In this document: piece after piece, positions 17,074-57,834 of the stretch
How positions within the stretch are numbered: position 1 is the stretch's first letter
Layout of the letters: each line of letters begins with the position of its first letter
DNA from: Thermoguttaceae bacterium
Lineage (GTDB): Bacteria > Planctomycetota > Planctomycetia > Pirellulales > Thermoguttaceae
Assembly: GCA_031549705.1 (NCBI GenBank)
Contig: JAVBPI010000043.1
Location: 30,770 to 94,769 of the forward strand
Reading direction: 5' to 3'
Length of the DNA stretch: 64,000 bases
Program-made: the position numbers and the translations under genes
The notes under the pieces: model-generated
What the model was told of the DNA's origin: nothing
What the model saw: the letters and a program-made list of their open reading frames with translations, nothing else
The model's database searches: none

Positions 17074-17445
17074 CTACGACTCGCGATCCTGTTTAACTTT
17101 TGTACGTTTTTTGATTGAAACAGCCAGTCGATGCAGCATTGCCGATATTCGATTCGTTGTCGCAATACATTGTTTTCCGAAATCTTCGGGAAAATACCCG
17201 ATATTAATTCCGACATACAGTTGCGAGCGAACTTCGCCGCACGATCCCTTTGCATATCGGAGGAACAACAATAAATCTTTCGAAGTGTCTCGATCTGATC
17301 CTTCTGCAATGTTGCTTGAAATGGAAAGAGCAGCACGAGTAATCTGATCCCTGAATCCCCTGTCTTTCAGTGTAGATGTACTGGAATAAATATCCGCAGC
17401 CAATTGAACGGCGACTTTCCAAACATCCAAATCTTCAAAACGCAT
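17074..17445 (-). CDS. Four-helix-bundle protein (23S rRNA intervening-sequence protein / Avd-like family)
   Basis: Family hallmarks as I recall them are present: MRFEDLDVWKVA, SISSNIAEG and GSCGEVRSQL. It is about 120 aa. I chose the ATG at 17445. The listed start at 17463 is a GTG inside the repeat arm. Confidence 0.8.
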   Translation of the reverse strand: MRFEDLDVWKVAVQLAADIYSSTSTLKDRGFRDQITRAALSISSNIAEGSDRDTSKDLLLFLRYAKGSCGEVRSQLYVGINIGYFPEDFGKQCIATTNRISAMLHRLAVSIKKRTKVKQDRES

Positions 17446-17460
17446 TGGTTCCCTCTTCTT

Positions 17461-17492
17461 CACGAATCACGAACCACGAATCACGAATCACG
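17461..17492 (-). repeat. Heptamer array (CACGAAT/CACGAAC units), inverted partner of 16962-17059
   Basis: The sequence is cacgaatcacgaaccacgaatcacgaatcacg. It overlaps the ffh stop codon, so ffh also ends ..RDS-stop. Confidence 0.9.
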
Positions 17493-18968
17493 TTTTTTCT
17501 TCTCTTTCTTCTTTTTTTCTTTTTCTCGTTTTTTGCGGGCTTCTTCTTTTTCTTTCGTGGTAAGCCGTTTGCCGGTTCCTTTTTTGACTTGCTGGATTCC
17601 GGCGGTCGGGTTGTTCGACATCATTTGGGTGAGCTGCTGCATCGCGCCCATTCGGTCCCGCATGTTCATCGACGACATCGACTTCATCATTTCGGCCATC
17701 GGGAGAAACGCCTTGATGAGGTCGCTCACCTGATTCGGTTGCACCCCGGCTCCGGCGGCTATTCGGCGTCGACGGCTCTGGTCGATCACCTTCGGATTCC
17801 GTTTTTCCTCGGCCGTCATCGAGTCGATGATTCCGCCGACCCGTCGCATTTCGTCGTCGGCGTCGACATTCATGGAGCCCATCATTTTCGTGATTTGGCC
17901 CATTCCGGGAATGAGTCCCAGCACTTTGCTGAACGAACCGAGCCGTTTCGCCTGGCCCATTTGGTTCCGGAAGTCGTCAAGCGTGAACTCCCCTTTGGCA
18001 AGGCGTTCCTGCTGCTTTTCGAGCGCTTCCTTGTCGAGCTTTTCGGTTGCCTGCTCGATGAGCGAGAGCATGTCCCCCATACCGAGAATTCGGCCCGCCA
18101 TCCGGTCGGGGTGGAACTCCTCAAGGGCTTCGACCAGTTCACCGGTTCCGATATACTTGATCGGAACCCCGGTAATATGTTTGACGGAAAGAGCTGCTCC
18201 ACCACGAGCATCACCGTCGAGCTTCGTGAGAATCACGCCGTCGAGTTCCAACGCCTCGTTGAACGCTTTGGCGGAGTTCACGGCGTCCTGACCGGTCATC
18301 GAGTCGACGACGAAATAGACCTGATCCGGCTTGATCTGCTGCTCGATCCGCTGGAGCTGCTTCATCAGCTCCTCGTCGATATGGAGACGACCGGCGGTAT
18401 CAAGAATCAGGACGTCGACGCCGAGCGATTGGGCTTTCTTGACGGCGTTCAGGCAAACGAGAACGGGATCTTTGTTTTCGCGGTCGGTGTGGACCGGAAC
18501 GCCGATCGATTTACCGAGAATTTCGAGCTGGTCGATCGCTGCCGGACGCTGAAGGTCGGCAGCAACGAGCATCGGTTTGAGATTGCGCTTGACGAGCAGC
18601 TTGCCCAATTTACCGCATGTCGTCGTTTTTCCGGAGCCCTGCAAGCCGCAGAGCATAATCACGCTGAGCGAACCTTTCGGCTTGAGATGCAGGTCGTGAT
18701 CGACGGGCCCCATAAGGGCGATCAACTCTTCGTGGACGATCTTGACGAGCTGTTCGGTCGGGTCGAGGAGTTTCAGGACATGTTCGCCGAGAGCCTGCTC
18801 GGTGATTCTCGCCATGAAATCCTTGACGACGGGGAAGCTGACGTCCGCTTCAAGGAGCGATTGGCGAACGAGTTCGAGCCCTTCGCGCATATTCGATTCC
18901 GTGAGCTTTCCCTTCCCTCGAAGGGTCCGAATCGCGGACATCAAATTGTCTTGGAGGTTTTCGAACAT
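17481..18968 (-). CDS. ffh: Signal recognition particle protein Ffh with Lys-rich tail
   Basis: It has the N domain, GTPase motifs GLQGSGKTTTCGKL, DTAGRL and TKLDGDARGG, and a Met-rich M domain. Confidence 0.95.
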   Translation of the reverse strand: MFENLQDNLMSAIRTLRGKGKLTESNMREGLELVRQSLLEADVSFPVVKDFMARITEQALGEHVLKLLDPTEQLVKIVHEELIALMGPVDHDLHLKPKGSLSVIMLCGLQGSGKTTTCGKLGKLLVKRNLKPMLVAADLQRPAAIDQLEILGKSIGVPVHTDRENKDPVLVCLNAVKKAQSLGVDVLILDTAGRLHIDEELMKQLQRIEQQIKPDQVYFVVDSMTGQDAVNSAKAFNEALELDGVILTKLDGDARGGAALSVKHITGVPIKYIGTGELVEALEEFHPDRMAGRILGMGDMLSLIEQATEKLDKEALEKQQERLAKGEFTLDDFRNQMGQAKRLGSFSKVLGLIPGMGQITKMMGSMNVDADDEMRRVGGIIDSMTAEEKRNPKVIDQSRRRRIAAGAGVQPNQVSDLIKAFLPMAEMMKSMSSMNMRDRMGAMQQLTQMMSNNPTAGIQQVKKGTGKRLTTKEKEEARKKREKEKKKKEKKKRDS

Positions 18969-19193
18969 GATTCACTCAGGCGTTCGCCTGTTTCGGTACG
19001 GATCGAACCGTAGATCAGGAAAAATCGTAAAAACCGTCAGAAAAAGAGGTCGAGGTCTACTCGAACTCGTTTCCGGCGATATAATTCAATCTGGTTGGGA
19101 AACGGCACTGTTCGGGAGTTTCCCGGAAAATCTCTATATTATCAGGAAAGTTGGCGTTTTGACAATGAGGGACTCACCGCTTTTTTATTGATT

Positions 19194-22018: not shown

Positions 22019-22705
22019 TTACTCACAAGCAAGAAGATGTTTGTGGATCGTCGGCAATGCATCGGTGAGGAAAGCGCTGGCGACATCGGCGGTTCCGGAA
22101 GCGGCACCGAGCGCTTCGGTTTGCATTTTGTACACGAAACGATAGCGGCTGAATTCCGAACGAGGGTTCTCCACGGCAACCCACGTCTGCCCGGTGCTGA
22201 CACCGTAATAGAACGAAATCTTATCCGCCTGAATATCCTTGTTGATGAAATTCACCTGCCAAAACGTGTCGTCCGTCGGTGCATTCGCGGCGGGAGCGAC
22301 GATCGGAAATGAAACGGGCGTCCGACCTTCTTCTTTGGTGTAATTCTTACCGCCGAAACAGAATTCGGGAGTATGAACGACAATCCGTCCCGTTGGGCCG
22401 ACCATCAGCGTCAGGAAGACTTCGGAATGGGATTTGCTGTTGCGATAACGTCGGCAAATGTATCCGTTTTCGATTTCCAGCTGATCGACGTCGGTCTTGG
22501 GAAGAAGCTCTTCTTTTTCGGCAACCCAATCACCGATCGTCATGGGAAGCTCCTTGAGAAGCTTGCCCGCTTCTTGTTGTTTGTGAGAATTCCCAAAGCG
22601 GCCGGTCAGGTTTCCGCAGTAGACGGTAACGGCCAAGGTAAGAACGGCGACAATGAAAATTCCGACGAACAGGGAACTCGACGGAGCGGATTTTGTTGAA
22701 GGCAT
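22019..22705 (-). CDS. EpsI-like (exosortase-associated, DUF3485-type) protein
   Basis: It has an N-terminal TM helix, then LPMTIGDWVAEKEELLP...YICRRY...VFLTLMV...HTPEFCFGG. This matches the EpsI pattern (IG.W.g..l...Y..R.Y...HSPE.C) as I recall it. Confidence 0.6.
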   Translation of the reverse strand: MPSTKSAPSSSLFVGIFIVAVLTLAVTVYCGNLTGRFGNSHKQQEAGKLLKELPMTIGDWVAEKEELLPKTDVDQLEIENGYICRRYRNSKSHSEVFLTLMVGPTGRIVVHTPEFCFGGKNYTKEEGRTPVSFPIVAPAANAPTDDTFWQVNFINKDIQADKISFYYGVSTGQTWVAVENPRSEFSRYRFVYKMQTEALGAASGTADVASAFLTDALPTIHKHLLACE

Positions 22706-24496: not shown

Positions 24497-24694
24497 AATT
24501 TTGTGCCGATGAAAAATGAACAGAGCAGCGCCCGTGCGCAGCGAAGCGGAGCTAAGGAAACTGCAGCCCGCGTAGGTTAGGCGGAATCACCAGTCAAGTT
24601 TTTCGCGAATCCCAAAACACTCCGGTGGGGGAGAATGTACGCAGTATACAAGTTCATTCTACTTCGAACCCGTTCGTTTATCAAGGAGGAAAAT

Positions 24695-25633
24695 TTAATT
24701 TCCCATTTCTCGGCGTCGCTGCAATTCGGCGATGATTCTGTCGGCCCCGGCTTGGAGAAGAAGCGTTCCGACCCGCCGACCGAGCGATTCCGGCGATTCC
24801 CCCGAAGCCGCCGCCTCCGTCCGTTCGAACATTGCGGCGCCGTCGAGGGAAAGAATCCGTCCGTGCAGCGTCAGTCGGCCCGCCTCGACGGTTCCCAGAG
24901 CGGCGATCGGAGCGATGCACCCCCCTTGGAGCGTTCGGAGCATTTCCCGTTCCGCAAGAACCGCTGCAAAGGTCGACTCGTCCCGGAGCCGGACAACCGC
25001 TTCCGTCGCCGTCGAATCGTCGGTTCGAACTTCGATTCCCAACGCTCCCTGTCCGACCGCCGGAAGGAACCACGGTGGTTCAAGGAAGGACGCAATCCGA
25101 TCCGCGAACCCCAGTCGGCTCAACCCGGCTTCTGCAAGAACGAGGGCGTCGACCTCGCCATCGGTCAATTTCCGCAGCCGGGTCTCCACGTTGCCGCGAA
25201 TATCCTCGACACGGAACCGATCGCCGAAGCGGTGCACGATTTGCGTTTGCCGCCGCAAACTTCCCGTTCCGATCACCGAGCCGGGAGGAAGTTCGTCGAG
25301 TGTTTTCGCGTTGCGGCTAAGAAAAGCGTCCCGATACGCGGCCCGTTTCGGAACCGCTGCAAGGGTCAACCCGTCGACCCGTTCGGTCGGCAAGTCCTTC
25401 AAACTGTGGACGGCGACATCGACGGTTCCGTCAAGCAGCGCCCGTTGAATCTCTTTCGTGAAAACGCCGGTCGCTCCGATGCGGGCGATCGGTCCTTCCT
25501 GCACAAGATCGCCGCGTGTCTTGATTTCGATGATTGCGACGTCGATTCCGTGCTGCCGCAATGCACCGGCGACCCAATCGGCCTGCCAGCGAGCCAACGC
25601 GCTGCCGCGTGTTCCCAAACGTATTGTTGTCAT
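24695..25633 (-). CDS. hemC: Hydroxymethylbilane synthase (porphobilinogen deaminase)
   Basis: Motifs present are MTTIRLGTRGSALARWQA, IIEIKTRGD and GGCIAPIAAL. The ATG is at 25633. Confidence 0.9.
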   Translation of the reverse strand: MTTIRLGTRGSALARWQADWVAGALRQHGIDVAIIEIKTRGDLVQEGPIARIGATGVFTKEIQRALLDGTVDVAVHSLKDLPTERVDGLTLAAVPKRAAYRDAFLSRNAKTLDELPPGSVIGTGSLRRQTQIVHRFGDRFRVEDIRGNVETRLRKLTDGEVDALVLAEAGLSRLGFADRIASFLEPPWFLPAVGQGALGIEVRTDDSTATEAVVRLRDESTFAAVLAEREMLRTLQGGCIAPIAALGTVEAGRLTLHGRILSLDGAAMFERTEAAASGESPESLGRRVGTLLLQAGADRIIAELQRRREMGN

Positions 25634-25680
25634 GGATTGATCGAGGTAGGCGACGCATTTAAGAAATACTGGCCGCACTA

Positions 25681-25869
25681 GTACAAAGTTAAGGTAATAA
25701 TGTTCGTGAAAAGGGACAAGGTATCGTCATCCCCGCGCAGGCGGGGACCCAGAGATCCGTTTTTCATGGGCTCTTGCACCCGTTGTTCACGGCTGCAAAC
25801 GGATGTTGGCCTTTTTGTCTAGGTCCCCGCCTGCGCGGGGATAACGAACATTATTTCCTTAACTTTGTA
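25681..25869. repeat. Family-1 REPIN nested inside a second 26-nt inverted repeat
   Basis: The family-1 arms are at 25726-25753 and 25818-25845. The outer arms are GTACAAAGTTAAGGTAATAATGTTCG (25681-25706) and its imperfect complement (25844-25869). Confidence 0.8.
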
Positions 25870-36875: not shown

Positions 36876-36903
36876 AAGCGCGTCGGAGGCCGACGCGGCT
36901 AAC
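36876..36903. repeat. Half copy of repeat family 3 (REP)
   Basis: The sequence aagcgcgtcggaggccgacgcggctaac matches the right arm of the REP doublets at 56737-57925. Confidence 0.6.
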
Positions 36904-37423
36904 CCACCTGCATGAGCGACGTACTGACCATGAAGACACGGTCCTGGATCGACAACGTTTCCGGGTCGTCCACCTCGAACGTCACGCTGCAGTACTCGAT
37001 TCCTTTCGAGTACGAAATATGGTAATTGCTCCCTAAAATCACGGACGGCACCGTAATGTTGCCGATCATCCACGGCGTGTTGTACAATCTCGTTTTCAAA
37101 CCGCCGGCGACGATGTTCGTCAGTTCACCGACGCCGTCGACCACTTGGTGGTCCAGCTTCGTAAATTCGTCTTGAAGCAGTCCCGCTACGGCGACCAAGG
37201 CGACGCGTTCCGGGAGGTTCATCGTCAAAAATCCCGTACACTTTCCACTCATCCCGATCATTCCCGTCACGCCGGCGTTCGGGAGCTGTGTCGGAATTTT
37301 CGTAATCCCGACGACGTGCATTTTCGTGTCGCACATTTGAAAGCACCCCTCCACCGCCTGGATGATCGCGTTGACCACCGGATAGTTGACGGACAGACCC
37401 CGGATTGCGTTTGCTTCGGACAC
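36899..37423 (-). CDS. CheX-like chemotaxis phosphatase family protein
   Basis: It has the CheX pattern (GVTGMIGMSGKCTGFLTMNLPERVA..ELTNIVAGGLK). A GTG start lies 4 nt after the upstream stop. Confidence 0.65.
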   Translation of the reverse strand: MSEANAIRGLSVNYPVVNAIIQAVEGCFQMCDTKMHVVGITKIPTQLPNAGVTGMIGMSGKCTGFLTMNLPERVALVAVAGLLQDEFTKLDHQVVDGVGELTNIVAGGLKTRLYNTPWMIGNITVPSVILGSNYHISYSKGIEYCSVTFEVDDPETLSIQDRVFMVSTSLMQVG

Positions 37424-39496: not shown

Positions 39497-39617
39497 GGAC
39501 ACGAGAAAAGAGTGTTCGACATTCAAAACGATACAACGTGATGCATTCTATTGTATCGTTTCGATACATTTTTGGGAAGGAGGTTGAGAAAAAGAGCGTC
39601 GGTAGTCGACCGGGTAA

Positions 39618-42682: not shown

Positions 42683-42760
42683 AATACCACATTTTTGTAT
42701 GAGAGAGTTTGGCGTTTAGGGGCGAAAACGGTGGTGGTGTTTGGTGAGACGCCGAGATTA

Positions 42761-42796
42761 CCGTCCCCTCTCTCCCTCCGGGAGAGGGGAGGGCAG
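42761..42796. repeat. Short palindromic element, repeat family 4; possible bidirectional terminator
   Basis: The sequence is ccgtcccctctctccctccgggagaggggagggcag. It lies between the convergent fabI and kinase genes. Confidence 0.55.
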
Positions 42797-42807
42797 ATTG
42801 CCCCTTT

Positions 42808-44169
42808 TCACGAGACCGTCCGAAACTCGTAATCCTCGCCGGTATCCATCGTCGCGGCATCGTCTTGAAATCCGAGTTTCTCCGACAATCCGAGCGGCGG
42901 AATCCACGGTTGCAGCCGTTCGACGATTTCCCGAGCCGTTCGGATCCGTCGGTTCGGATCCTTGGCAAGCATCGCCCGGAGAATTTGCACGATATCGAAC
43001 GGAATCGTCTGATTGAAGACGCGCGGATCGGTCGGCTCGTACAATAAATGGGCGCGGAATTTTTGTTTGTTGTCCCCCTTGGGAAAAGGGACGACTCCCG
43101 TCAACACCAGATAAAACGTGCAACCGAGCGAATAAATGTCCCACGACGGCGTCGGTTCGTCGGGAGAACGGATTTGATCCGGCGCCAGAAAGTCGACCGT
43201 TCCCGCGACTTTGCCGCTCAAACCGGTCGCCTTGTCGATTTGACGCTCCAGGATCGTCCCCTCTTCGATCTTTTCGTTGGCGACATAGGTCGAGCTCAAC
43301 CGCGACGGAACCGTGAGCCCCATATCGCCGAGCTTGGCGGTCCCTTCACTGGAAAGCATCACGTTCGCCGGTTTGATGTCCCGATGAACCAACCCGTTTT
43401 CGTGGAGACACTGAAGTCCTTGGGCAAGATGCGAAATGATCGCCGCCGCGACATCAAACGGCAACTTCCCTTCGGTTCGCAAAAGCTGCCGCAAGTCGCC
43501 GCCGTCGACGAATTCGTGAACCATGTAATGAACGTTTCCGTCCCGTCCCGACGCAAAGTACCGGACCAGATTCGGGTGCTGCAGGTTTTGTTGGACTTCG
43601 ATTTCATGCAGAAATCTCGCCGTCAGTTCCGGCGTTGCGCGACCGAACGGCAACACCTTGATCGCATAGAAGGGCTCCACGGCGAAAAACGAATGAGCCC
43701 CCTTCTCCCGTTTTTTGCGGACCTCGCGGTCTTCACGGCCGAGAAAAACGTGTCCGTACCCCCCTTTACCGATGGAGTCGAGAATCCGATAGTCGCCGAG
43801 CGAAAATTTCGTTCGACCGTCCAGAAGCTGCGTCGCCTGCCAGGTATTCAGGACCCCCCGTTTGACCAATTCGTCCGCAAGGCGGCGGTCTCCATCGGTA
43901 ATTCTGCTCTTCGCAACGGTCGTGGAATCTCCCTCCAGCGACTCGTCGGAATCCGATGACGGTTCGTCCACGATCGACGCGACCGGTCCGACATGGTGCT
44001 CCGCTCCCTTTAACCGTGCCGTATGCTGGTATTGCTCCACCCCCGTTGCCGCCGAAGCGGACAACGGCGTTCCACCGGATTGCCGAAGCGATTCCAAAGC
44101 TTCATTGAGCACCGCCTCGGTGACGAGGCGGCTCGCCTTGGCGTAGTGATAAAATCGGGGCGGCTCCAT
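42808..44169 (-). CDS. Serine/threonine protein kinase
   Basis: Motifs present are a Gly loop GKGGYGHVF, AIKVL, the catalytic loop HRDIKPANVML, and DMGL. An N-terminal extension of about 130 aa has unknown function. Confidence 0.9.
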   Translation of the reverse strand: MEPPRFYHYAKASRLVTEAVLNEALESLRQSGGTPLSASAATGVEQYQHTARLKGAEHHVGPVASIVDEPSSDSDESLEGDSTTVAKSRITDGDRRLADELVKRGVLNTWQATQLLDGRTKFSLGDYRILDSIGKGGYGHVFLGREDREVRKKREKGAHSFFAVEPFYAIKVLPFGRATPELTARFLHEIEVQQNLQHPNLVRYFASGRDGNVHYMVHEFVDGGDLRQLLRTEGKLPFDVAAAIISHLAQGLQCLHENGLVHRDIKPANVMLSSEGTAKLGDMGLTVPSRLSSTYVANEKIEEGTILERQIDKATGLSGKVAGTVDFLAPDQIRSPDEPTPSWDIYSLGCTFYLVLTGVVPFPKGDNKQKFRAHLLYEPTDPRVFNQTIPFDIVQILRAMLAKDPNRRIRTAREIVERLQPWIPPLGLSEKLGFQDDAATMDTGEDYEFRTVS

Positions 44170-44331
44170 GAAACGAAAGGGTTGAATGACTCAAAAGAAA
44201 ATGCCGATTTCATTATAAACGATTTCGACCGACTCTCATAGACCCGCAGGAAGCTCGTTGCGGCTCCGCGAATTTTGAGCTAAAATAAAAGAAAGAACGA
44301 TTCCGCTCTCTCCTGATTTTTGGAATTCTTC

Positions 44332-47300
44332 ATGTCCGACGCAATCACACGATTTATTCTTGACCGGATCGTCAACGATTATGTGCGGCTCCGTAAAGCG
44401 GGAATCGCTCCGGAACCAATTGCCTACGTCAATCTCTGGCCGAAATACTCCGACCGATTGACTCAGGACATCCTGTTCACGGAGTACCGGCTTCGAGCCG
44501 AATGGGGGCAATCCGTTTCCGTGGAGGCGTTTCTCGCCCAAAATCCGTTCCTGAAGACGGACGGCGCTTTCGTGTTGCGGTTGCTCGAATTCGAACTCGA
44601 AAACGCCGACGAGTCGCCGGACACCGATTCCGTCTGCCAACGGTTTCCGCAAATCAATCGGGAGCAGCTTTCGCAAGCCGTGGAACTCGCGCAGTTGCGA
44701 CGCAGTTGGAAACCGAAATCGCAGACCGTTTCATCGCCGACATCCACCCAGTTAAGCCCACAGACCGAAGGTCCCGGCGCCGATTCGAACCAAACCGCCG
44801 CGTTCACGCCGGACGCAACGGTCCAACGGCAACCCGATTCGAACCAAACCGCCGCGTTCGCGCCGGACACAACGGTTCAGTTGAGCCCGCAGACAGGAGG
44901 TTCCGGCATCCAGGAAACGTGGTCGCAAGAAAAATCCCAAACCCTCCAATGGAGCGTCCATCAAACCAACGACGCCGACCAAACGATTGCTCCGACGGGA
45001 ACTCCGACCGCTGCCGTTTCTTCTTCACCGCAACCGAGCCCATTAACCCCGACGGCGAAGGGAGCGGCAGACGTTTCCCAAAAAGCCGGAACGCCCGAAC
45101 CTCGATCAAGGGATCACCTGACGACGACGGAGTTTTCCGTAACGGATACGCTCACCGTGGAGAAATTTCTCGGGAGCGGTCGGTGGAAAGACGTTTACAA
45201 AGCGAAACAGGAAAGCACGCGACAATTCGTTGCGCTGAAGCACTTACGTGAGAAAAACGACGCGGAACGGGAGGGACTCGTTCGGGAAGTCCGTACCCAG
45301 GCGAAGTTGACGCATCAAAACATTCCGCCGGTTTTTGCGCTGGAGACGCTGCCGTCCGGTCAGGCGATCGTCGTTGAAAAACTCGTCGACGGCGACCGTT
45401 GGTCGGACACGATCCGAACGCGGACCTTGGAGGACAATCTCCGCATCCTTTTGGAAATCGCTTATGCGCTGTCGTTTGCGCATCGGCAACATCATATCAT
45501 CCATCGGGACTTGAAGCCGGACAACGTCGTCATCAACGACAAATACGACGAGGTCTACCTGATCGACTGGGGCTTGGCGATCGACGTCGGCGACGCGAAA
45601 TCCGACTCCGAGGACATGGTCCCCCACGTCAGCACCGTGGAAGGGGTTGCGGGAACCCCGTTGTACTGGGCGCCGGAACTTGCGGCGGGAGAACCGTGGA
45701 AGTGTTCGCCGGCAACCGACGTCTTCCTGCTCGGCGCGATGCTTTACGAAGTCCTGACCGGACACGCACCGTACGAAATGTTCGATCCGCGAAAGTACAG
45801 CGTCGGCAATGTTTCCGTGTCGACAAATCCGCAATCACGGATGACCGAAGCGCAAACGGTCGCCGAAGTCGGCCCGATGCTCCGCGCGGTGCGGGCGATC
45901 ATCATCCCGCCGTTGCAATGGCATTCCGAACGATATATGCCCGACGAACTGGTCGCCGTCGCCATGAAGGCGATGGCGTTGGAACCGTCCGACCGTTACG
46001 CCGACGCCGGGAACTTCATCGATGCGATCAAGCAATACCAGCATTTCGCGATCGTAACGAGCAGGTGTGACAAAAATTGGAAGCAGCTCAAAGCGCTGAC
46101 GCGGGAACGATGCAAAACCGCCGGGAAACCTTCGTCGCTGCTCGCCCTGACGCTCCGTTTCCTGGAGACGGCGGATATCTTTCACGGTGTGATCGGCGAA
46201 CTACAGGGACGGGACGACGCCCCGAAACGACGTCCGGATGAAAACGCAACGGAAATTCACCCGACGCTCCTTGCCGCCCGCAAAGGGGAAATCGAAGCAC
46301 GCAAGGAATTGGTCGGCTTGACGCTCGAATCCGGCGACTTGACCCTGGCCGACGCGCAGATCGGTTTAATGGAACGAAATCCGCTCCACGATCCGGCGAC
46401 GACGAACCTGTTACGGCATCAGGTCCGGACGCTCCAACAAGCGAGAAAACGCGCCCGGATGATGAAATGGGTCGCCGTCGGACTGCTCGCCGTGTTCCTC
46501 GGCTCGTCGATTTTATACGGATTCCTGATCAACGAGCAATACAAACAAACCGCGAAGGAATACCGCCGCGCCGAAGAGAACCGGGCTCGCGCCGAAGAGA
46601 ACTTCCAAAAAGCGCAGAGCGCCGTCAACGAATTCTTTACCGAGTTCGCCAAGGAGGACGCCGTCAAGAGCGCGGGCCTGATGCCGCTCCGTCGCAAGCT
46701 CCTTGATTCGGCGAGGCGGTATTACGACGATTTCGCGTCGCAAAAACACGACAATCCCGACGTCATCGCCGGAAAAGTCAGCTCGCTTTTCGACATGGGG
46801 GGGATCGAAGAGGGGTTCGGCAACGGACACGATGCGATCGACTATTATCTCAAGGCGATCCAACTCGGCGAGGCACTGGTTTCCAGGCATCCCGACAACG
46901 AACATTACCTCGAGATCCTCTCGAAGTGCTACAAAGACCTCGCCGTCGTTTACGAAGCGGAAAACTTCGACGCCGGCCGGATTCTCGACTGTAACGAAAA
47001 GGCGTTGACGATTTCGCGAAAACTGGTCGCCGACCATCCGGACGTTCCGGAGTTCCACCGCAACCTTGCGCGGGCACTGCACAATTTCGGCGTCTTCGAA
47101 TTTCGGCACGGAAACGATCCGAAAGCGATCGCGTTCTTCGACGAATCGCTGAACGTCCGCGAGGGGATGCTCCGCTTCCCCGATCCGCCGGAGTACCATT
47201 TCGGCAAATCACAAACCCAGTTCCTGGTCGGAATGGTGTTCGCCAAAGAGGGCCGACCGGACGAAGCGGACAAAAAATTCGACGCCGCGCTGCAAACGAT

Positions 47301-47854: not shown

Positions 47855-49972
47855 ATGAAACAGCATCGACAGCCGACGGCATGGGTGGACGCCGCCGTCG
47901 GACTTCTCGTTACGGCAACGATTTTCGGAAACGGCGATCTCAACGAACGGTCCGGCGCGTTCCATCTGCTCGCCGTTTTTTGGATCCTCGCCGCCGCCGT
48001 CCGGGTGATCGTTCCGCTGCTCGGCAAACAGGACGCCGGCCTGAGATTTTTTCGTTGCGATATTCCAGCCTATCTTTTCTTCGTTTGGGTTGCCGTGTCG
48101 ATCACCTGGAATTTGCTCCCCGGCAACGGCGGCGCACCGAGACCGGGTTTGAACATGCTCTCCGTTTGGCTCGCCCTGGGAGCGGCGTGGTTTCTCTTCC
48201 GACAAACACTCGAACGTCCGGAAACACGCAACGCGGCGCTGCGATTGATCCTTGCCGTCGTTCTCGCCGAAGCCGCGACGGGACTCCACCAACAGTTCGT
48301 CGAGTTCCCGCAAATTCTGCACGATTTCCGGACGAACCCCGTCGCAACCGTTGCCGCGGCCGATCCGTCGCTGGAACAGGGAACGCCGGATTGGGACCGT
48401 TTCGTCAAACGACTGGAAACGATGACGCCAATGGGAACCTATCCACTGTCGAATTCGCTCGGCGGTCTCCTTGCCGTCGGGTTCGTGTTGATGCTCGGCG
48501 TCTATTTTTCAAAACCGTCCGTAAATTCCTCGAAGCCCGTCCCGTCCTGGCGAAAAATTCTCGGCGGAGCCTTGCTCGCCGTAGTGTTGTTCTGTTTCGT
48601 GCTGACGAAATGCCGTAGCGGATTCGTCGCCGTTGCCGTCGGCCTTGCGCTGTTCGGCTGGTTTTCGTTCCCCCGTTTCAACGCGCGCTGGACGAAACGA
48701 ATACTGATCGGAACCGCCGTCGCCGTCGTGTTTGTCGCCGCCGTATCCGTCGCTGTCCCCGGAAAATCGATGATTTCCGGCGCAAAAAGATCGCTCGGTT
48801 TCCGTCTCGAGTATTGGCAGGCGTCGACGGCGATGATTGCAGACCACCCGCTCTTCGGTTGCGGCAGTGGAAATTTCAAACAGGCGTACACAAAATACAA
48901 GTTGCCGTGGGCAAGCGAAGAGATTGCCGATCCGCACAACTTCGCCGTCGAACTCGCCGCCGTCGCCGGACTTCCGGCGCTCGCTCTTTTCGTAACGGCC
49001 GTCGTTGGGCTGATGTTTCGTCTCGGATTTTCGCGATGCACGGCCAAAACGCAAGCGGCATCCCCGGCGGACGCAAACACGAAACTCTTCTATTGGTCCG
49101 GTCTCGGCGGCGGCGTTCTTGCGTTCGTCGTGTCGCTTTACGCCGAATCGCAAATCGCTTTCGAGCCGATCCTTTTCCTGCTGGTCGCGTTTCCGTTGGT
49201 CGATCTGGCGTTCGGCGACCGTCGTGAAATTCCTCCGTGGGTTCCGGCAATCGGGCTTGTCGTTTTTCTCGTTCACTTATCGGCGGCCGGTGGAATTTCC
49301 GCGACGAATTCGGCGATACTCGTTTGGCTCCTCGCGGCAATCCTCTTGAACGAAACGGCCCCGACCGACGGAACGGAAAACAAGAAGGTGTGCGGCATGT
49401 TTCTGTGCGTTTTTGTCGGGTCGCTTCTCGCCGTCAACCATTTCGGCCTGCAACCGATGCTCCGGTCGTTGCCGTTCCTTCTCGATGCCGACGAAGCCCG
49501 GGACGTTCCCCGCCGCATCGAGTCGTTACGCAAAGCGGCGGCCGTCGATCCATGGTCGGCGACGATCCAGGAGCGACTTTCGACCGAAGCGTTTCGCGGT
49601 TGGTTTGCACATCCGAACGATAAAGCATGGAAAGCGACGACGTGCGAATCATTGGAGAAATCGCTCGAACTCTCGCCTCGTTCGGCGGGACTGCGGTTCA
49701 TGTATGCGGAGCGGCTCTTCGCCATGTACGAAAAAACCGGCGACGTCGCTGTGCGGGACCGGGCTTTGGAACTTTACCGTGAAGCGATCGACCGGTATCC
49801 GAACCATGCGAAGATTCGGGGACCGTACGCCGTCGCACTCTGGAAATCCGGACAAAAAGAGGAATCGCTCCGCCAACGGGACGAAGCATTGCGGCTCGAC
49901 GACATCATGCCGCATGACGACCAGAAACTTGCCGACGAGTTACGAAAACGGCTGGTCGAGTTTTATTATTGA
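47855..49972 (+). CDS. O-antigen ligase (Wzy_C)-family polytopic membrane protein with C-terminal TPR domain
   Basis: It has at least 10 TM helices, the ligase-type loop ..PHNFAVELAAVAGLPAL.., and a TPR tail. The ATG is at 47855. Confidence 0.8.
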   Translation: MKQHRQPTAWVDAAVGLLVTATIFGNGDLNERSGAFHLLAVFWILAAAVRVIVPLLGKQDAGLRFFRCDIPAYLFFVWVAVSITWNLLPGNGGAPRPGLNMLSVWLALGAAWFLFRQTLERPETRNAALRLILAVVLAEAATGLHQQFVEFPQILHDFRTNPVATVAAADPSLEQGTPDWDRFVKRLETMTPMGTYPLSNSLGGLLAVGFVLMLGVYFSKPSVNSSKPVPSWRKILGGALLAVVLFCFVLTKCRSGFVAVAVGLALFGWFSFPRFNARWTKRILIGTAVAVVFVAAVSVAVPGKSMISGAKRSLGFRLEYWQASTAMIADHPLFGCGSGNFKQAYTKYKLPWASEEIADPHNFAVELAAVAGLPALALFVTAVVGLMFRLGFSRCTAKTQAASPADANTKLFYWSGLGGGVLAFVVSLYAESQIAFEPILFLLVAFPLVDLAFGDRREIPPWVPAIGLVVFLVHLSAAGGISATNSAILVWLLAAILLNETAPTDGTENKKVCGMFLCVFVGSLLAVNHFGLQPMLRSLPFLLDADEARDVPRRIESLRKAAAVDPWSATIQERLSTEAFRGWFAHPNDKAWKATTCESLEKSLELSPRSAGLRFMYAERLFAMYEKTGDVAVRDRALELYREAIDRYPNHAKIRGPYAVALWKSGQKEESLRQRDEALRLDDIMPHDDQKLADELRKRLVEFYY

Positions 49973-50090
49973 GCAGGTGATAAAATTTGATCCGTTGTTT
50001 AACGATTGTCGTGTATGGTCCGTCGCGTTTTGAACTCCGCTACGCTCCGTACCAAACACGACTCCGCTCATTTTTTATTGCCACCACATT
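49971..50090. repeat. ~120-nt conserved module (second, inverted copy of 11395-11513)
   Basis: The sequence gagcaggtgataaaatttgatccg...cattttttattgccaccacatt aligns with the reverse complement of 11395-11513 with scattered substitutions. It starts at the stop codon of the upstream gene. Confidence 0.8.
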
Positions 50091-50144
50091 TGACCGGGGA
50101 CCACGACAGAGTACCGTCTTCGTCCCCGGCTCTTTGGTGAACGG

Positions 50145-50243
50145 TTATTTCATCCGCCGTCGCAGAAAACCGATTCCGGCGAGTCCGAGTCCGCCGATCA
50201 ACATCGACGCCGGTTCCGAAACGATAAACGGATGAAATGTCAC
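50145..50243 (-). other. PEP-CTERM sorting-signal coding segment, out of frame (-1) with the giant Fn3 gene
   Basis: It translates to VTFHPFIVSEPASMLIGGLGLAGIGFLRRRMK-stop, i.e. a PEP-like motif (SEP), a hydrophobic helix and an Arg cluster. It has no credible start codon of its own and overlaps the TGA at 50240-50242. Confidence 0.75.
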
Positions 50244-53200
50244 ACGAACTTCGGCATCGTCAACCGGGTCGCACTGGAAAGCGATGTCCCGAGCCCGTCG
50301 CCGAACACGGCGCCGATCTGGAACGACACCGACGTCGGCTTCGCGCCGTCCGCGTAGCCGAGCTTCGTGAGCAACTCCGTGAACAGCAACGTCGCCGTTT
50401 TCGTGCCGGAAGCAAGCGACGCCTGGTCGAGCGTCGACAATTCGATGAACGTTCCCGCTTTCCCCGTCGTCGAGGCGAATATTTTGTACGTTATGGCGAC
50501 GTCGCCGACGGTCGTCAGTTTGGGCGGCTTCCATGAAACCATGCACGAAAATTTATTGCCCGTCGTCAACGTGAAGCCGGCCTTGCCCGACGAAACCGTC
50601 GGAAGCTTTGCCGTGGTGAACGTCGCAATGCGGGACATCGCCGACGATTCCGTCTCCCCTTCGCCGTACACCGATTTCACGACGTAGGTATAAACGGTCC
50701 CCGCTTTCAGGTCCGTCAGCACCGCCGAGAGGGTCGTTCCGGATATTTCGATGGTCTTCACGCCGGCTCCGTCCTCCGGCCAGGTCGTCGTCTTTCCTTC
50801 CTTGTACTCGATGGTGTACTTTTTGTCCGCGGCGGAGACCGTTTTGTCGGAATCCGTAAACTTGATTTCCGCCGTCGAAATCGTGATGTTTTTCGCCGAA
50901 AGAGCGCTCGGCGCCACCGGCGACGGCGGCGTGGCGGTGACTTCCACGGCCGTCGATTCGCCGTAAGTCGTGCTCGACGTCGACGGACTGATCGCGATCA
51001 CCCGGAATTTGCAGGCGGTTTTCGCGGTCAGTTTGACGGTCGTTTGGTCGGCGGAATCGCCGTATTTAAACGATGAAGTGATCGTGTACGTTTTTTCGGT
51101 CACGGTGGCGACTTCGTACCACAATTTCGTCGTCGTGTCGTAGTATTCGATACGGAATTGTGTCGGATCCGCGATGTCCGTCACCGTCTTGATCGCCCAC
51201 GTCAGCGTGATCGACGTCGGCGTCGTCGCCGCTTTCAACGTCGTAACGGCATTGGGACGGGAAACGTCGAGCGTGGTGAAATTCTTTGCAAGGGTGGCGG
51301 CGGCCGAGTTTCCTTCGCTGCCGGTCGCGTAGATTTTGATCGAATACGTCGTCTTCGCGTTCAGGTCGGTTAGTACATATTCCGTCAGGCCGGTCCCGTT
51401 GACGGGTGGACGGACGATCTTTTCCGTGGCGCCGGTCGAGGTGTTCGTCACTTCGATCACATAACCGTCCTCGAACTCGCTGTTATCCGTCCATGAGATC
51501 TTCGCGCTGTTGAGCTTGATGTCGCTCACGGCGATGTTGCTAGGGGCATCCGGCACGCTGACCGGTGTCTTCACATACCGTGTCTCGGTTTGCTTGTCGC
51601 CGCTGAAGTAGACCAATTGAAATTCGTAATCGACTCCCGGTTTCAACGGGGTTGCCGTATAGGAAGTCGTTCCGATGGCAAGCGAAACTTCCGTCCAGTT
51701 GCCCGTTCCCGCTTCCTGATAACGAAAAAGGTACGTCGTTCCGGAGTCGGTCGGCAGATCCCAATTAAACGTGACGCTTTTCGCCGTGATCGAACCGTCG
51801 GCGATGTGGAATCCCCGGAGCGTCGAGACTGTCTTTTCGTCGGAATAAACGTACTCGCCGCTCTTGACGCCGTACTGAACGCGGAACGTATATTCCGTTT
51901 CGGATTTGAGCGATCCGGCGTCCGGGCCGGCGGCGAGCGTCGTGATGTCGACGTAACGGGAAGCGGTCGTCGAAACGGTCGTCGCGGCGTACCACTTGCC
52001 GTCATCGGCCTTGTACTGGATGACGTAGTTGCCGACGGTCGCAACCGTCCAAGCGACGCGCACTTTACCGTACTGCGTCGATGTCGCGGTAATCGTCGGT
52101 TGACCGGTCGTCACGGTCTTGACGGTCGAATACGCCGTGGCGTTGGCGGCCGTTGCATACTTGACACGAAATTCGTAAGTCTTGTTCGGATCGAGCTTCG
52201 ACGAGACCGTGTAGGACTTCGCGGAGGTTCCGAGCGCCGCGCTGGTGCTCCAAGCGTCGGTGGAACCGGCGAGTCGCCATTCGACGTAATACTGAGCCGA
52301 GGTCGCCTTGTCGGCAAAGCTCGACGGGTCCCATGAAATCGTCACGGAGCTTGAGGTTACGTCCGACGGATTCAGGTCGTCGGAAATCGTTACGGTTTTA
52401 ACGTGCGAGTCTTGTGAAACGGTGCTTCCGGAGGCGTTCGACACATACACGACTTTAAGTTCATATTCCGTTTCGGGAACGAGGTCGGACAGTTCGAACG
52501 TCACGGTGCCGTCGGCTGCCGCGCCGACCACATACGGCAAGCTCGTCGTCCATTCGGCGTCGGATTTCGGACGGTAATAGAGCTTGAAGTCCGATTCGAT
52601 GCCGGTGAGATACCGCATCGTGACGGTCGCCGACGCCTTGTCGGTTCCCATGGTGACGTCGCTGATGATCTGTTTCGAGATCACGGACATTTCGTAAGTC
52701 GTCGTTTCCGCTTCGAGGATCGGCGTTGTCTTCGAATTGCCCGTCGAGTTATCCGTGTAGGTGACTTGGAATTCGTACTCGGTATTGGCGGCCAGTCCGG
52801 TGACGGTTGTCGACGTCGAGGTCGTTCCGCTGAGAACCGTCGACCATGTCGTGGTTCCCTTGACACGTTTTTCGAGGGTGTATGTCGTTCCCGACTTGGC
52901 GGGCGGATTCCACGAGATCGTCAACGAGTTGACGTTCGCGCTTTCCAGTTTCACGTCGTTGAGCGTTTGAACCTTGACGACTTCCGAGAATTTCGTAACG
53001 AGCGGCACCGTCCATTCCGTGCCGGCGAGGTTCTCGGCGACACCGGTTTCGTAAGTATAGGCGACACGATAATACTGCGTCGAACCGGTTGCCAAATCAG
53101 GGATCGTGTAATACTTGTTCGCGCGGATCGGTTCGCCGATCGTGACCCAATAACCCGATTCGGTCAGACCGCGAAGTCTGTCCGCTTCGGTCGGTTCGCC

Positions 53201-55483
53201 GGTTCCGACGAATTTCTGGACGACATAATGGCCTTCGCCGTCACCGGCTTCCGTCTTGTTGGTCGCCTTGTCTTTGTAGGTGTCGAACGTCCAGATGAGC
53301 TGAGCGCTGTTCTTGCCGAGCGAGTTGATCGTCACGGCGTACGGCTCGGTTCGAACATCGGTCAGTTCCGCGAGAGGGTTCGAGTAACCGGCACCGGTGA
53401 TGCAAATGCGGATGTCATAATTCGTGTCTCCGATGAGACCGGTAATGGTGTGCGTATTCGCCGAGGACGAGAGATTCGTGGCGACTTCGACCCAGGTTTG
53501 TGCGCCGGTGCGTTCCGATTTCTCGAATTTCCAGATCGTGTAGTTCCGGCCTTCGGTGTCCTGCGTGAAAGCGGTTTTCGCCCAACGCAACTCCATGCTC
53601 GTTGATGTGACGCTCGTCGTGATCATCTTGCCGACCTGCGTGGCGATTTTCGTCGTGGTCGACGTCTGTTGATCGGGGGTTTCTTTCGTGTCGTACAGGA
53701 CGCGGAAATAGTACGTTTTTCCGGGAATCAGGCCGGTCACGATGCAGCCGGTGCTCCAGTCGGATTTCAAGAACGATACCGAAGCATTCGCCCAAGAGGC
53801 TTCACTCGGGGCGCTTTCCCCCTGGTACATCTGGACGGTCGGCGTCTTCGTCGGATCGAAGTCCCATTCGAGCCGCACGGTGTCGAGTTCGGACGAAACC
53901 GCCTTGATGACCGCGTTCGTCACCGCCGTTACATAAATCGTGTGTTGCGTGTTGCCGGAGCCGTCCGTGTATTCGACACGGTAATAGTATTGCTGGTTCG
54001 AACCGATGTTATTGTTCGTAAATTCGCCTCCGGCGACGTTCTTCTTGATCGTCGTCCAGTTCGTGGAAACCGTCGGTTTGAGCGAACCGTCGCAGCGCTG
54101 GACGTTGAAGTTCGTCCCGATGGCGGTGTCCCAGGAAATCGTCGCGGACTTTTCCGTCACGCTTTTGAGCGTCGTTTCGACGCCGGTCGTCGCTTCCGAA
54201 TACGCGGTGTACGCCGTGTACGTCTCGGTTCCCTTGACGGCGGTGTACCGGACCCGGACGTAATACGTCTTGCCGGGATCGAGATCCGTCATCGTGTACG
54301 ATTTCGCCGTCGTGGTGCCGCCGGGCCAGTCCGACCAATTCGTCTTGTCCGAGCTGTACTGGACGTAGTACGAATATCCCGAGGAACCGGAGAACGTCCA
54401 CGAGACCTTGATCGAGGTCGCCGTCACGCTGTCGACCGTGATGCTCGTCGGCGTCGAGAACGCCGTCACATCGCTGTAGGTCGTGACGGGTTTGCCGTTT
54501 TCGTCGTTGACGGTGTATTTGACACGGAAATAGTACGGTGTTTGTCCCTTCAAGCCCGTGACCTTGTATTCCGTGTTGCTGACCTTCTCGGTGGTCGCGG
54601 TCGACCAGATGGACGTACTCGTCGGCGCGCTGGAGCTTTGGAACATCTGGATTTCATGCGAACCCGTGTTGCCCCCCATCGCGGAATTCCATGACACAAG
54701 GACGGTATCCGCCGAGTCGGTCGCTTCCGCGTTCAGGGCGTACAGCGTCTTGCCGACGACTTCCTGCGTCGTCCGGAGAACGTTGTTCGTGTCGTAGTAT
54801 TGAACCTGGAAACGATATTCCTGTCCGGTCGTCAGTCCGGTAACGGTGTACGATTTCGCCAACGTGGAATCCGCCTTGATCGATGTCGACGGATTGACGG
54901 TGACGAATGTCGAACCGTTCCATTGTTGTACCTGAAAATACGTCGAACTGCGTGCCAGGACTTCCCACGAGAGTTTGATCGAAGTCGAAGTCAGTCCTTC
55001 CGCTTTCAACTCGACCGATTTGGTCGTCGCCTCAACCGCCTCGGTCGCGGCACGGCCTTGGGTAAGCGAGCCGAACGAAACGCGGAACGTGTATTGGGTC
55101 GACGCGGTGAGATTCTTAATCTCGTAAGTGTAGACGTCGGCGTTCGCCGGCGTGTAGTAGAGATCGCTGCCGACTTGAGTCCAGACCTGATTGCCGTCCT
55201 TGTCGAGCACCGCGTTGCCGCTGGAATCGACCGAGAGCTTTTCGACCTTGATCGCATCGGTCGACCGCATGTTCGTCAGGTCGGAAATCTTCCATGACAA
55301 CTTGATGCTGCTCGCGGTGGTATCGGCTTCCACGACTTCCGGTTTCGGGATCGGTGTCGCTTCCGTCTGCACCACGCTTGAAGCGGCGTAGGCGAACGAC
55401 AGCGGCGACACGGAGAGCATCTCACGGTTTTCCAAGGATTCGAAACCGAGTGAACGCGCTTTGAATTTTTTGAGAAAAGCCAT
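50240..55483 (-). CDS. Giant fibronectin type III repeat protein (1747 aa)
   Basis: I chose the ATG at 55483 (MAFLKKFKARSLGFESLENREMLS). At least 15 modules of ~90-100 aa are marked by S(I/V)(K/T)(L/V/I)SW and Y-x-F-(R/Q)-V-x-Y, for example YTFRVSF, YRFQVQY, YYFRVKY, YEFRVKY. It ends ..ATRLTMPKFV-stop. Confidence 0.9.
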   Translation of the reverse strand: MAFLKKFKARSLGFESLENREMLSVSPLSFAYAASSVVQTEATPIPKPEVVEADTTASSIKLSWKISDLTNMRSTDAIKVEKLSVDSSGNAVLDKDGNQVWTQVGSDLYYTPANADVYTYEIKNLTASTQYTFRVSFGSLTQGRAATEAVEATTKSVELKAEGLTSTSIKLSWEVLARSSTYFQVQQWNGSTFVTVNPSTSIKADSTLAKSYTVTGLTTGQEYRFQVQYYDTNNVLRTTQEVVGKTLYALNAEATDSADTVLVSWNSAMGGNTGSHEIQMFQSSSAPTSTSIWSTATTEKVSNTEYKVTGLKGQTPYYFRVKYTVNDENGKPVTTYSDVTAFSTPTSITVDSVTATSIKVSWTFSGSSGYSYYVQYSSDKTNWSDWPGGTTTAKSYTMTDLDPGKTYYVRVRYTAVKGTETYTAYTAYSEATTGVETTLKSVTEKSATISWDTAIGTNFNVQRCDGSLKPTVSTNWTTIKKNVAGGEFTNNNIGSNQQYYYRVEYTDGSGNTQHTIYVTAVTNAVIKAVSSELDTVRLEWDFDPTKTPTVQMYQGESAPSEASWANASVSFLKSDWSTGCIVTGLIPGKTYYFRVLYDTKETPDQQTSTTTKIATQVGKMITTSVTSTSMELRWAKTAFTQDTEGRNYTIWKFEKSERTGAQTWVEVATNLSSSANTHTITGLIGDTNYDIRICITGAGYSNPLAELTDVRTEPYAVTINSLGKNSAQLIWTFDTYKDKATNKTEAGDGEGHYVVQKFVGTGEPTEADRLRGLTESGYWVTIGEPIRANKYYTIPDLATGSTQYYRVAYTYETGVAENLAGTEWTVPLVTKFSEVVKVQTLNDVKLESANVNSLTISWNPPAKSGTTYTLEKRVKGTTTWSTVLSGTTSTSTTVTGLAANTEYEFQVTYTDNSTGNSKTTPILEAETTTYEMSVISKQIISDVTMGTDKASATVTMRYLTGIESDFKLYYRPKSDAEWTTSLPYVVGAAADGTVTFELSDLVPETEYELKVVYVSNASGSTVSQDSHVKTVTISDDLNPSDVTSSSVTISWDPSSFADKATSAQYYVEWRLAGSTDAWSTSAALGTSAKSYTVSSKLDPNKTYEFRVKYATAANATAYSTVKTVTTGQPTITATSTQYGKVRVAWTVATVGNYVIQYKADDGKWYAATTVSTTASRYVDITTLAAGPDAGSLKSETEYTFRVQYGVKSGEYVYSDEKTVSTLRGFHIADGSITAKSVTFNWDLPTDSGTTYLFRYQEAGTGNWTEVSLAIGTTSYTATPLKPGVDYEFQLVYFSGDKQTETRYVKTPVSVPDAPSNIAVSDIKLNSAKISWTDNSEFEDGYVIEVTNTSTGATEKIVRPPVNGTGLTEYVLTDLNAKTTYSIKIYATGSEGNSAAATLAKNFTTLDVSRPNAVTTLKAATTPTSITLTWAIKTVTDIADPTQFRIEYYDTTTKLWYEVATVTEKTYTITSSFKYGDSADQTTVKLTAKTACKFRVIAISPSTSSTTYGESTAVEVTATPPSPVAPSALSAKNITISTAEIKFTDSDKTVSAADKKYTIEYKEGKTTTWPEDGAGVKTIEISGTTLSAVLTDLKAGTVYTYVVKSVYGEGETESSAMSRIATFTTAKLPTVSSGKAGFTLTTGNKFSCMVSWKPPKLTTVGDVAITYKIFASTTGKAGTFIELSTLDQASLASGTKTATLLFTELLTKLGYADGAKPTSVSFQIGAVFGDGLGTSLSSATRLTMPKFV

Positions 55484-57199: not shown

Positions 57200-57266
57200 G
57201 TTAGCCGCGTCGGCCCCCGACGCGCGGAATGTTAGGGGAAGCGCATCGGGGGCCGATGCGGCTAAC
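57200..57266. repeat. REP doublet (REPIN), repeat family 3
   Basis: It has the same arms as 56737-56802 and contains the stop codon of the RAYT gene. Confidence 0.85.
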
Positions 57267-57834
57267 GGGAATAGGGAACCACGAACGGCCAATGTTGAGG
57301 TTTGAGCCCATCGCGGATGGGGTTTTGCTCGACGTATTCAATGGCACGACGAACGTCGTCATCGGAATCGAGCCAGACCTCCCAATGGCCGCGAGCCCAC
57401 GGTGAGTGAACGCCGTCAAGCGGCCGTAGGTTTTCATGATTCATCTGTTTCGAGGCACGACTTTTCAGGTGTCCGACAATATCGGTGAACGGTTTTTGAT
57501 GCCGCTCGACAACAAGGTGAACGTGATTCGGCATGACGACGCAAGCGAAGACGCCGTAATGGGACTCATCGACAGCGACATGAAAACCGCGAGCGGTGGC
57601 GCGGGCCTGGAGTCCGTTCAGGACGACGGGCGGGACTTCGAGTTGTTTTTTGGCGTTAAGGCGATGTTTCACGTCATGGAAATCGCGGGCGAGGCTGCGG
57701 CTGGTATCGACTTTCGTCGCGGCTCCGGCATATTCGTACAATTTTCGGGAGCCGACGTAGATCGACCACGAACCGCGAGGATCGTTCGGCAACCAAAAAC
57801 CGTGGCACCCGAAAGTGATATGCGCCGCCAACAT
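57262..57834 (-). CDS. REP-associated tyrosine transposase (RAYT; IS200/IS605 Y1 HUH family)
   Basis: It has the HUH motif in VVMPNHVHLVV and a catalytic Tyr helix (RRAIEYVEQNPIRDGL). It is 190 aa and is flanked on both sides by family-3 REP doublets. Confidence 0.85.
   Translation of the reverse strand: MLAAHITFGCHGFWLPNDPRGSWSIYVGSRKLYEYAGAATKVDTSRSLARDFHDVKHRLNAKKQLEVPPVVLNGLQARATARGFHVAVDESHYGVFACVVMPNHVHLVVERHQKPFTDIVGHLKSRASKQMNHENLRPLDGVHSPWARGHWEVWLDSDDDVRRAIEYVEQNPIRDGLKPQHWPFVVPYSR

Follow-up and report, generated by a model that had tools for sequence, protein, structure and literature searches.

PEP-CTERM domains, the sorting signals of the exosortase (EpsH) system, are defined by a Pro-Glu-Pro motif that hardly ever varies and have been described solely as C-termini of secreted proteins, and about 97% of PEP-CTERM proteins possess a signal peptide (PMC1569441). 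The subject of this work is a module of this type that lies out of frame directly behind the stop codon of a giant Fn3 protein in a Thermoguttaceae bacterium (Planctomycetota; GenBank assembly GCA_031549705.1, contig JAVBPI010000043.1, positions 30,770 to 94,769). This 64-kb stretch, here called the window, was the whole of the genome sequence analysed, and related loci provided another 171 kb. The module appears to have been added to a gene that is otherwise complete.

An overlap of 4 nucleotides (nt) between stop and start codon is typical of translationally coupled genes, and palindromic repeats lie in or beside coding ends in the case of the Rickettsia palindromic elements, the Correia elements and the REP-type elements. 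At the frameshift site of prfB a C after UGA disfavours strong termination, and antizyme is an established case of a stop-codon-dependent shift that has a 3' structure close by (PMC5009743). The same review cites Weiss et al. 1987, the title of which names +2 events (PMC5009743).

An out-of-frame PEP-CTERM tail

Translation agreed with the original prediction, made from the sequence of the window, that a 1747-amino-acid (aa) Fn3 protein ends in ..ATRLTMPKFV followed by TGA at 50240. The enclosing open reading frame (ORF) opens at 55642 and has its first ATG at 55483, giving a protein that begins with MAFLKKFKARSLGFESLENREMLSVSPL (MAFLKKF..). Pfam detected 14 Fn3 stretches (E 4e-87) and otherwise nothing notable. 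The N-terminus (55400-55483, minus strand) consists of a basic stretch plus FESLENREMLSVSPL, carries FESLENREMLS and has no classical hydrophobic signal core. The giant thus lacks the classical N-terminal signal peptide expected for PEP-CTERM proteins, which would make a functional fusion of giant and tail somewhat less natural.

The -1 frame stays open between 50546 and 50145, and the tail ORF consists of its final 32 codons (Table 1). The first of these, GTG (50243-50241), overlaps the TGA of the giant as GTGA (cGTGTGAca), so the tail has a formal start of its own, which it had been said to lack. When the tail was searched on its own, PF07589 (PEP-CTERM) matched its residues 8-29 with 27.0 bits (E 4e-6; the gathering score is 20.7). 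Several models of full-length PEP-CTERM families matched it with their ends as well, while the narrower TIGR02595 of NCBI gave 13.7 bits, under its cut-off of 16. The match contains SEP, a variant of the Pro-Glu-Pro motif in which Glu-Pro is retained and the first Pro is replaced by Ser. At the extreme C-terminus the hydrophobic helix ASMLIGGLGLAGIGFL is followed by the basic cluster RRRMK and the stop, the order seen in PEP-CTERM signals. A strict six-frame motif scan of the window gave no second PEP-CTERM-like tail, and a slightly looser one of the window and the related loci gave one extra match, which was unconvincing.

A codon-usage log-odds score trained on the window's own genes favoured the giant's frame as far as about 50275 and then the -1 frame over 50240-50185. 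It follows from this, together with the profile and motif results, that the tail is coding sequence in the -1 frame, or was so until recently. Thus the PEP-CTERM-type signal that was the core of the original prediction holds, on the strength of both the Pfam score and the codon usage. Judged from the sequence, the change of frame must lie within a few bases of the giant's stop. No X_XXY_YYZ heptamer was present in the 300-nt overlap of the two frames, as had also been noted before, and homopolymers in this overlap are at most 4 nt long, all of them away from the junction.

The family of the giant protein and its C-terminus

Relatives were found with HMMER, in an exhaustive search for which the giant's C-terminal 600 residues served as query. 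Five full-length proteins (P0016-P0020, 1703-1773 aa) are 38-49% identical to it over the last 700 residues and align with it from end to end, to the very last residues. The DNA compared comprised loci L006-L011 for these proteins and, from a JGI metagenome scan, five loci with complete 3' ends (L012-L016), among which L013 is the gene of P0016 again from a second source. Across the last 142 residues, the ten family members show 27-46% identity to the window protein. The latter ends in ..TRLTMPKFV; the endings of P0016-P0020 are ..FRMALPKFVNYV, ..IKISLPAIV, ..GRVTLPKFV, ..SQALPTWAK and ..GKITLPKFA, and those of L012-L016 are ..LPKFVPYT, ..LPKFVNYV, ..LPKFVPYVV, ..LPKFVLFV and ..VPKFQ. From these ten members the C-terminus of the family can be summarised as ..LPKF[VAQ] plus 0-4 residues.

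At all ten homologous loci, a hydrophobic-plus-basic, PEP-CTERM-like peptide was absent from the three frames past the stop. The original prediction had regarded the giant as an anchored PEP-CTERM protein deprived of its tail, and had proposed to look for a fused tail in orthologues, taking the lack of one as one of three points against itself. Such a tail was present in 0/10; these relatives end tail-less at the same place as the giant, and this view had to be abandoned. Two of the loci, L007 and L009, are positional orthologues, because they share with the window a divergent SurE neighbour.

The giant has all the traits of its family: a length of about 1700-1775 aa, an N-terminal FESLExREMLSV, an Fn3 array and a C-terminal ..LPKFV. 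The N-termini of P0016-P0020, like that of the giant, show a basic stretch followed by L.FESLExREMLSV(S/A)PL and no classical hydrophobic signal core. In an AlphaFold2 model of the last 142 residues of the giant (six-sequence alignment; predicted local distance difference test, pLDDT, 74), these residues form a complete beta-sandwich, with TRLT as the last strand and MPKFV as a short terminal coil. Because the modelled sandwich is whole, the terminal domain would be complete without the tail. The TGA thus occupies the normal end of the family's proteins: the giant is untruncated, and the PEP-CTERM module is an addition confined to the window sequence or its lineage. The 3' neighbourhood of the gene is different in each relative, and for this reason the 3' end of the family would seem to be rearranged often. 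In the closest relatives PKFV is followed by x-[Y/F]-x, and in the -1 frame of the window by T-F-H, a weak hint at a former in-frame state.

Metagenome Ga0099364 holds at least five distinct members of the giant family (L012-L015 and L017). The sequence closest to the window protein is L017 (60% over 284 aa), on a contig that stops short of the C-terminus. A scan of genome contigs yielded only distant Fn3 proteins (24-32% identity). A word-indexed protein search with the tail plus junction as query gave no candidate, and the same search also missed the giant, which is present in the collection.

The junction and its predicted RNA structure

In GTGTGA the zero-frame codon GTG is repeated two bases downstream, and a C follows; the resulting GTGTGAC would permit GUG-to-GUG re-pairing in the +2 frame. 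Deleting TG from GTGTGACA puts ..FV TFHP.. back in frame. The arms of a perfect 10-bp inverted repeat mark the two ends of the tail ORF to within 1 nt, and only 1.4% of the 111-nt windows of the sequence contain a perfect inverted repeat this long. In the predicted fold, the arms of this repeat form the base of a long stem that is extended by pairing of GUG.GAC with GUUCAC; the Val codon and the stop both lie inside the predicted stem, and the stem-loop begins 1-2 nt after the stop. The fold z-score of the whole region is only -2.5. An origin of the TG by quasi-palindrome templating was considered and dropped, since by inspection the opposite arm offers no template for it.

Origin of the tail

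Because the relatives have no tail, every explanation needs a lineage-specific gain of the module first. This applies to each of the three options listed in the original prediction, an indel error, an inactivating frameshift and recoding, all of which are possible. The list was incomplete, and a module that was never translated and a coupled mini-ORF were added to it.

Starting from the identity and frame of the tail, the C-terminus of the family and the lack of a tail in the relatives, we infer a capture, an order of events and a lack of expression. The favoured reading, to which we give about an even chance, is that the end of a PEP-CTERM gene was captured as a module, which now lies out of frame and is essentially silent. 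Ribosomes would stop at UGA after ..MPKFV, and the main product would be anchor-free like the known relatives. The 99 nt past the stop are a true coding module of the PEP-CTERM type, which would derive from the 3' end of such a gene and have been captured recently enough for its sequence and codon usage to persist. The palindromic repeats near the module could have supplied homology for gene-end swapping, and a PEP-CTERM gene that ends in ..FIVSEPASMLIGGLGLAGIGFLRRRMK with the same palindromic repeat behind it would be a candidate donor. Either a brief fusion (..PKFV-TFHPFIVSEP..) may have been followed by a TG duplication on GTG/TG/ACA or by a loss of 1 nt, or the module may already have been out of frame when it was attached. 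Under either history the tail would go essentially untranslated, and the hairpin past the stop would be at most a 3' structure of the mRNA. Gene disruption does occur in this genome, since a sigma-54 activator with FHA, GAF and Sigma54_activat domains (37427-39526, minus strand) carries a nonsense codon, an in-frame TAG (38036-38038) between ..SQSLQA and FLRVLEGH.., beyond which its frame stays open for 199 codons. We take the interrupted stretch to be conserved, with Lys at this place in family members.

Several points weigh against a captured and silent module. Neither a donor gene nor a second PEP-CTERM protein was found within the visible 64 kb, and the word search with the tail returned nothing similar, although that search was unreliable for the giant itself. 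If the module is a silent remnant, three features are left without an explanation: the abutment of tail and stop to the exact nucleotide, the perfect GUG/GUG re-pairing that GTGTGA would offer, and the 10-bp perfect inverted repeat around the tail. All three are more in keeping with an expressed or regulated element. Moreover, the arrangement is known from a single sequence.

The least unlikely of the alternatives is an assembly or sequencing indel, by which the real tail would be in frame and the giant a bona fide PEP-CTERM protein (..PKFV[x]TFHPFIVSEP..). As originally predicted, a minimal change would fuse the two: one base missing, or two extra, at GTG/TGA/CA suffices, and GTGACA or GTGTNGACA would then be expected at the junction in place of GTGTGACA. 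The sequence comes from a draft or metagenome-type assembly, nothing is missing from the tail, whose codon usage is coding-like, and x-F-x after PKFV in the -1 frame resembles the closest relatives. However, the junction has no homopolymer, the longest nearby runs being of 4 nt and elsewhere, and sloppy assembly is unlikely because none of the window's long ORFs screened with Pfam or NCBIfam shows another break by an indel. A separate Logan contig (SRR23967709) is 100% identical to the window over 42743-44809 (2 kb), with the junction outside this part, so the run contains DNA of the same organism. The entry of the giant at NCBI, in the public protein collection, lies on a contig of 111,388 bp and belongs to a 90% cluster of 1 member, and no fused version is recorded. 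Literature searches gave no publication for the accession numbers.

Programmed recoding is more attractive than the original prediction supposed, yet we consider it improbable. With UGA-C in the A site, the P-site tRNA-Val would re-pair from GUG to the overlapping GUG, a +2 shift aided by the stem-loop, and a fraction of the protein would gain a PEP-CTERM anchor, giving released and exosortase-handled forms. The junction peptide would be FVTFHPFIVSEPASM.., and the shifted product would contain FVTFHPFIVSEPASMLIGGLGLAGIGFLR, while the unshifted one would end in ..LTMPKFV. The codons in the 0 and +2 frames of GUGUGA are identical, UGA-C is the weak-termination context of the prfB site (PMC5009743), and a stable stem, with the 10-bp perfect repeat as its base and the GUG.GAC/GUUCAC extension, starts at the site; the tail is intact, codon-adapted and abuts the stop exactly. 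Against this, the canonical slippery heptamer is absent, -1 re-pairing would be poor at GUG, UUC and AAG, and no evidence of +2 shifting at GUG_UGA was found in the text of the review (PMC5009743). The two-frame arrangement has zero conservation, the tail being found in 0/10 homologues, the fold z-score is modest and the giant has no classical signal peptide. It thus seems doubtful to us that GUG_UGA_C and the tail-enclosing stem-loop constitute a working recoding cassette, be it by a +2 shift or by reinitiation at GUG, that appends an anchor.

Less probable still is a coupled mini-gene of 32 aa (fMet-TFHPFIVSEP..RRRMK), which would be translated by termination-reinitiation at GTGA into a free single-pass peptide, for example an exosortase decoy or partner. 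Its 4-nt overlap of GTG start and TGA stop has a similar counterpart elsewhere in the window (e.g. 15734-15737), a ribosome terminating at the stop would melt the stem in which the start is buried, and the charge layout suits an N-out, C-in topology. The missing Shine-Dalgarno site is no objection, as such sites are rare in the window (3/27 genes). Nevertheless, in the -1 frame behind a TGA stop, chance alone would give an overlapping NTG start with a probability of 3/4; no homologue has such an ORF, and the protein word search found nothing similar. A free peptide also conflicts with PEP-CTERM domains being known solely as C-termini (PMC1569441).

We think it very unlikely that the tail is a small mobile cassette, with inverted repeats as its boundaries (ATTTCATCCG..CGGATGAAAT, that is ATTTCATCCG-N72-CGGATGAAAT), which inserts at the 3' ends of genes: the perfect 10-bp repeat delimits the module within 1 nt at each end, and other palindromic repeats and an IS200/Y1-type transposase ORF are present in the genome, but the unit is single-copy in the 64 kb, has zero copies in the 171 kb of related loci and shows no visible target-site duplication. 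Finally, a chance resemblance, in which the tail would be no sorting signal, can hardly be right, since in spite of the TIGR02595 score below cut-off and of SEP instead of PEP, the Pfam score exceeds the gathering threshold, the codon signal is in the right frame and the peptide is the sole one of its kind in the six-frame translation of 235 kb.

The upshot is a peculiar PEP-CTERM module, placed with precision and specific to this lineage, whose status is uncertain. If silent, the tail would be a small snapshot of C-terminal sorting modules moving between genes. For annotation, the lesson is to leave the giant as it is, without 'repair', since it is no PEP-CTERM protein that has been broken. 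Were the tail expressed through a shift at the stop, it would represent a rare case of cellular recoding that chooses between release and the exosortase pathway for a giant adhesin-like protein, and this unusual +2 event would be a newly evolved, non-canonical bacterial frameshift controlling surface attachment. Either way, the analysis defines a conserved family of giant Fn3 proteins, marked by a C-terminus that is fixed (..LPKFV) and by an N-terminal motif that is unusual; the genomes that carry it look planctomycete-like.

Exosortase-related genes and the surroundings of the tail

The EpsI-like protein of Table 1 is the only member of an exosortase-associated family (DUF3485) found in the window. 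It has one N-terminal helix, and the NCBIfam EpsI and XrtD models matched it far under their cut-offs. The adjoining gene (22763-24496, minus strand) encodes a 577-aa secreted TPR protein with three internal repeats of about 95 aa each (..SGEAWDTEIQGAL..) and has no exosortase gene next to it; an assignment of this protein as PrsT was rejected, as it matched only the TPR end of PrsT. No exosortase ORF was found in the 64-kb window. Two candidates were discarded: the ORF at 24635..25681 (plus strand) looks spurious, the opposite ORF (24695..25678) resembling by eye a porphobilinogen deaminase, and in the region 17376..19013 the opposite-strand ORF resembles by eye an SRP54-type GTPase. The DUF3485 protein and the O-antigen-ligase-like neighbour of the giant gene are hints that would fit an exosortase system located outside the window.

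The giant gene and the convergent Wzy_C gene are separated by a G+C-rich hairpin and a palindromic repeat (Table 1). The repeat lies about 50 nt past the stop of the tail, beyond the hairpin, and its first copy starts on the stop codon of the Wzy_C gene. A second, inverted copy is found at 11395-11517 (minus strand), with 87% identity over 119 nt in blastn; the extra G+C-rich hairpin of the first copy is missing there from the alignment. The repeat is closed by the stem GGUGAUAAAA/UUUUAUUGCC, and its inner CGUGU/ACACG stem varies between the copies with pairing preserved. Scanning the window for Rfam families and tRNAs gave no match, the palindromic repeat included, and neither the 125-nt repeat nor the tail was present in the related loci. 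A 190-aa ORF (57262-57834, minus strand) has a weak match to IS200-type Y1 transposases (28 bits), and it could be related to the palindromic repeats in a REP/RAYT-like manner. Synteny through the Wzy neighbour was of no use, since its 55%-identical homologue sits in an unrelated context.

Further genes of the window encode prepilin-type T2SS-G proteins and a 749-aa protein (27958-30207, minus strand) with a C-terminal autotransporter beta-domain (Pfam E 2e-26). The T2SS-G proteins, the scarcity of Shine-Dalgarno sites and the FESLENREMLS of the giant give the window a planctomycete-like look. The region 35763-37423, suspected of being a pseudogene with multiple frameshifts, consists in fact of three small genes, for CheX, an NTase-binding protein and a GNAT protein.

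Table 1. Positions of the giant Fn3 gene, the tail, the junction elements and neighbouring features in the window
Feature	Position	Strand	Evidence
Giant Fn3 protein coding sequence	50243..55483	-	Translation; ATG at 55483 gives 1747 aa
TGA stop of the giant, context GTG TGA C	50240..50242	-	Translation; homologue alignments place it at the usual C-terminal position of the family
Tail ORF, -1 (= +2) frame, 32 codons + TAA, VTFHPFIVSEPASMLIGGLGLAGIGFLRRRMK	50145..50243	-	Translation, Pfam, codon log-odds
SEP, variant of Pro-Glu-Pro motif	50211..50219	-	Read from sequence; within PF07589 match
Hydrophobic helix ASMLIGGLGLAGIGFL	50163..50210	-	Read from sequence
Basic cluster RRRMK	50148..50162	-	Read from sequence
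Inverted repeat, left arm ATTTCATCCG	50229..50238	-	Repeat search; base of minimum-energy stem; 1 nt past TGA
Inverted repeat, right arm CGGATGAAAT	50147..50156	-	Repeat search, fold; last base coincides with the initial T of the tail's stop codon, TAA
G+C-rich hairpin CCGGGGAC..GTCCCCGG between convergent genes	50094..50129		Fold, repeat search
Palindromic repeat, about 125 nt, filling the rest of the intergenic space	49966..50095	+	blastn, alignment, folds
Wzy_C (O-antigen-ligase-like) protein of 705 aa containing TPR repeats, convergent to the giant gene	47855..49972	+	Pfam PF04932, E 3e-23; P0013
EpsI-like (DUF3485) protein	22019..22705	-	Pfam PF11984, 31.1 bits against gathering score 26.1

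Comparison with known systems

The tail resembles the PEP-CTERM/exosortase signal (Haft et al. 2006, PMC1569441; PF07589) in its xEP motif, its helix of about 16 residues and its terminal basic cluster, and the window also contains an O-antigen-ligase-like neighbour and an EpsI-like protein. It differs in that it is in frame with no protein and has Ser as the first residue of the motif. In addition, the giant upstream has no classical signal peptide and its homologues do not use the signal, while an exosortase and a second PEP-CTERM protein were not seen in the window.

As at prfB (CUU_UGA_C) and antizyme (UCC_UGA plus a 3' pseudoknot), an overlapping codon is available for P-site re-pairing and a predicted RNA structure lies just downstream, and as at the prfB site UGA is followed by C at the shift position. 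Unlike those cases of stop-dependent frameshifting, a +2 (or -1) shift instead of +1 would be needed, without an upstream Shine-Dalgarno stimulator or conservation, and no experimental precedent was found for the site. The locus also recalls authentic-frameshift pseudogenes, where a functional module follows a premature-looking stop in another frame and a change of 1-2 nt restores it. There, however, ordinary homologues carry the module in frame, whereas here none of the ten does and the stop is at the normal end of the family.

With coupled genes that have ATGA or GTGA overlaps, the junction shares the TG common to start and stop, and a start buried in a stem; in contrast to them, the downstream ORF has just 32 codons, is unconserved, and the domain that it matches is known solely as a C-terminal tail. 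Lastly, like the palindromic elements found in or beside coding ends, the tail is a short unit that has inverted repeats at its borders and sits precisely at the end of a gene, in a sequence with other palindromic repeats, but it is single-copy and its interior, instead of generic palindrome sequence, is a recognisable protein-sorting domain.

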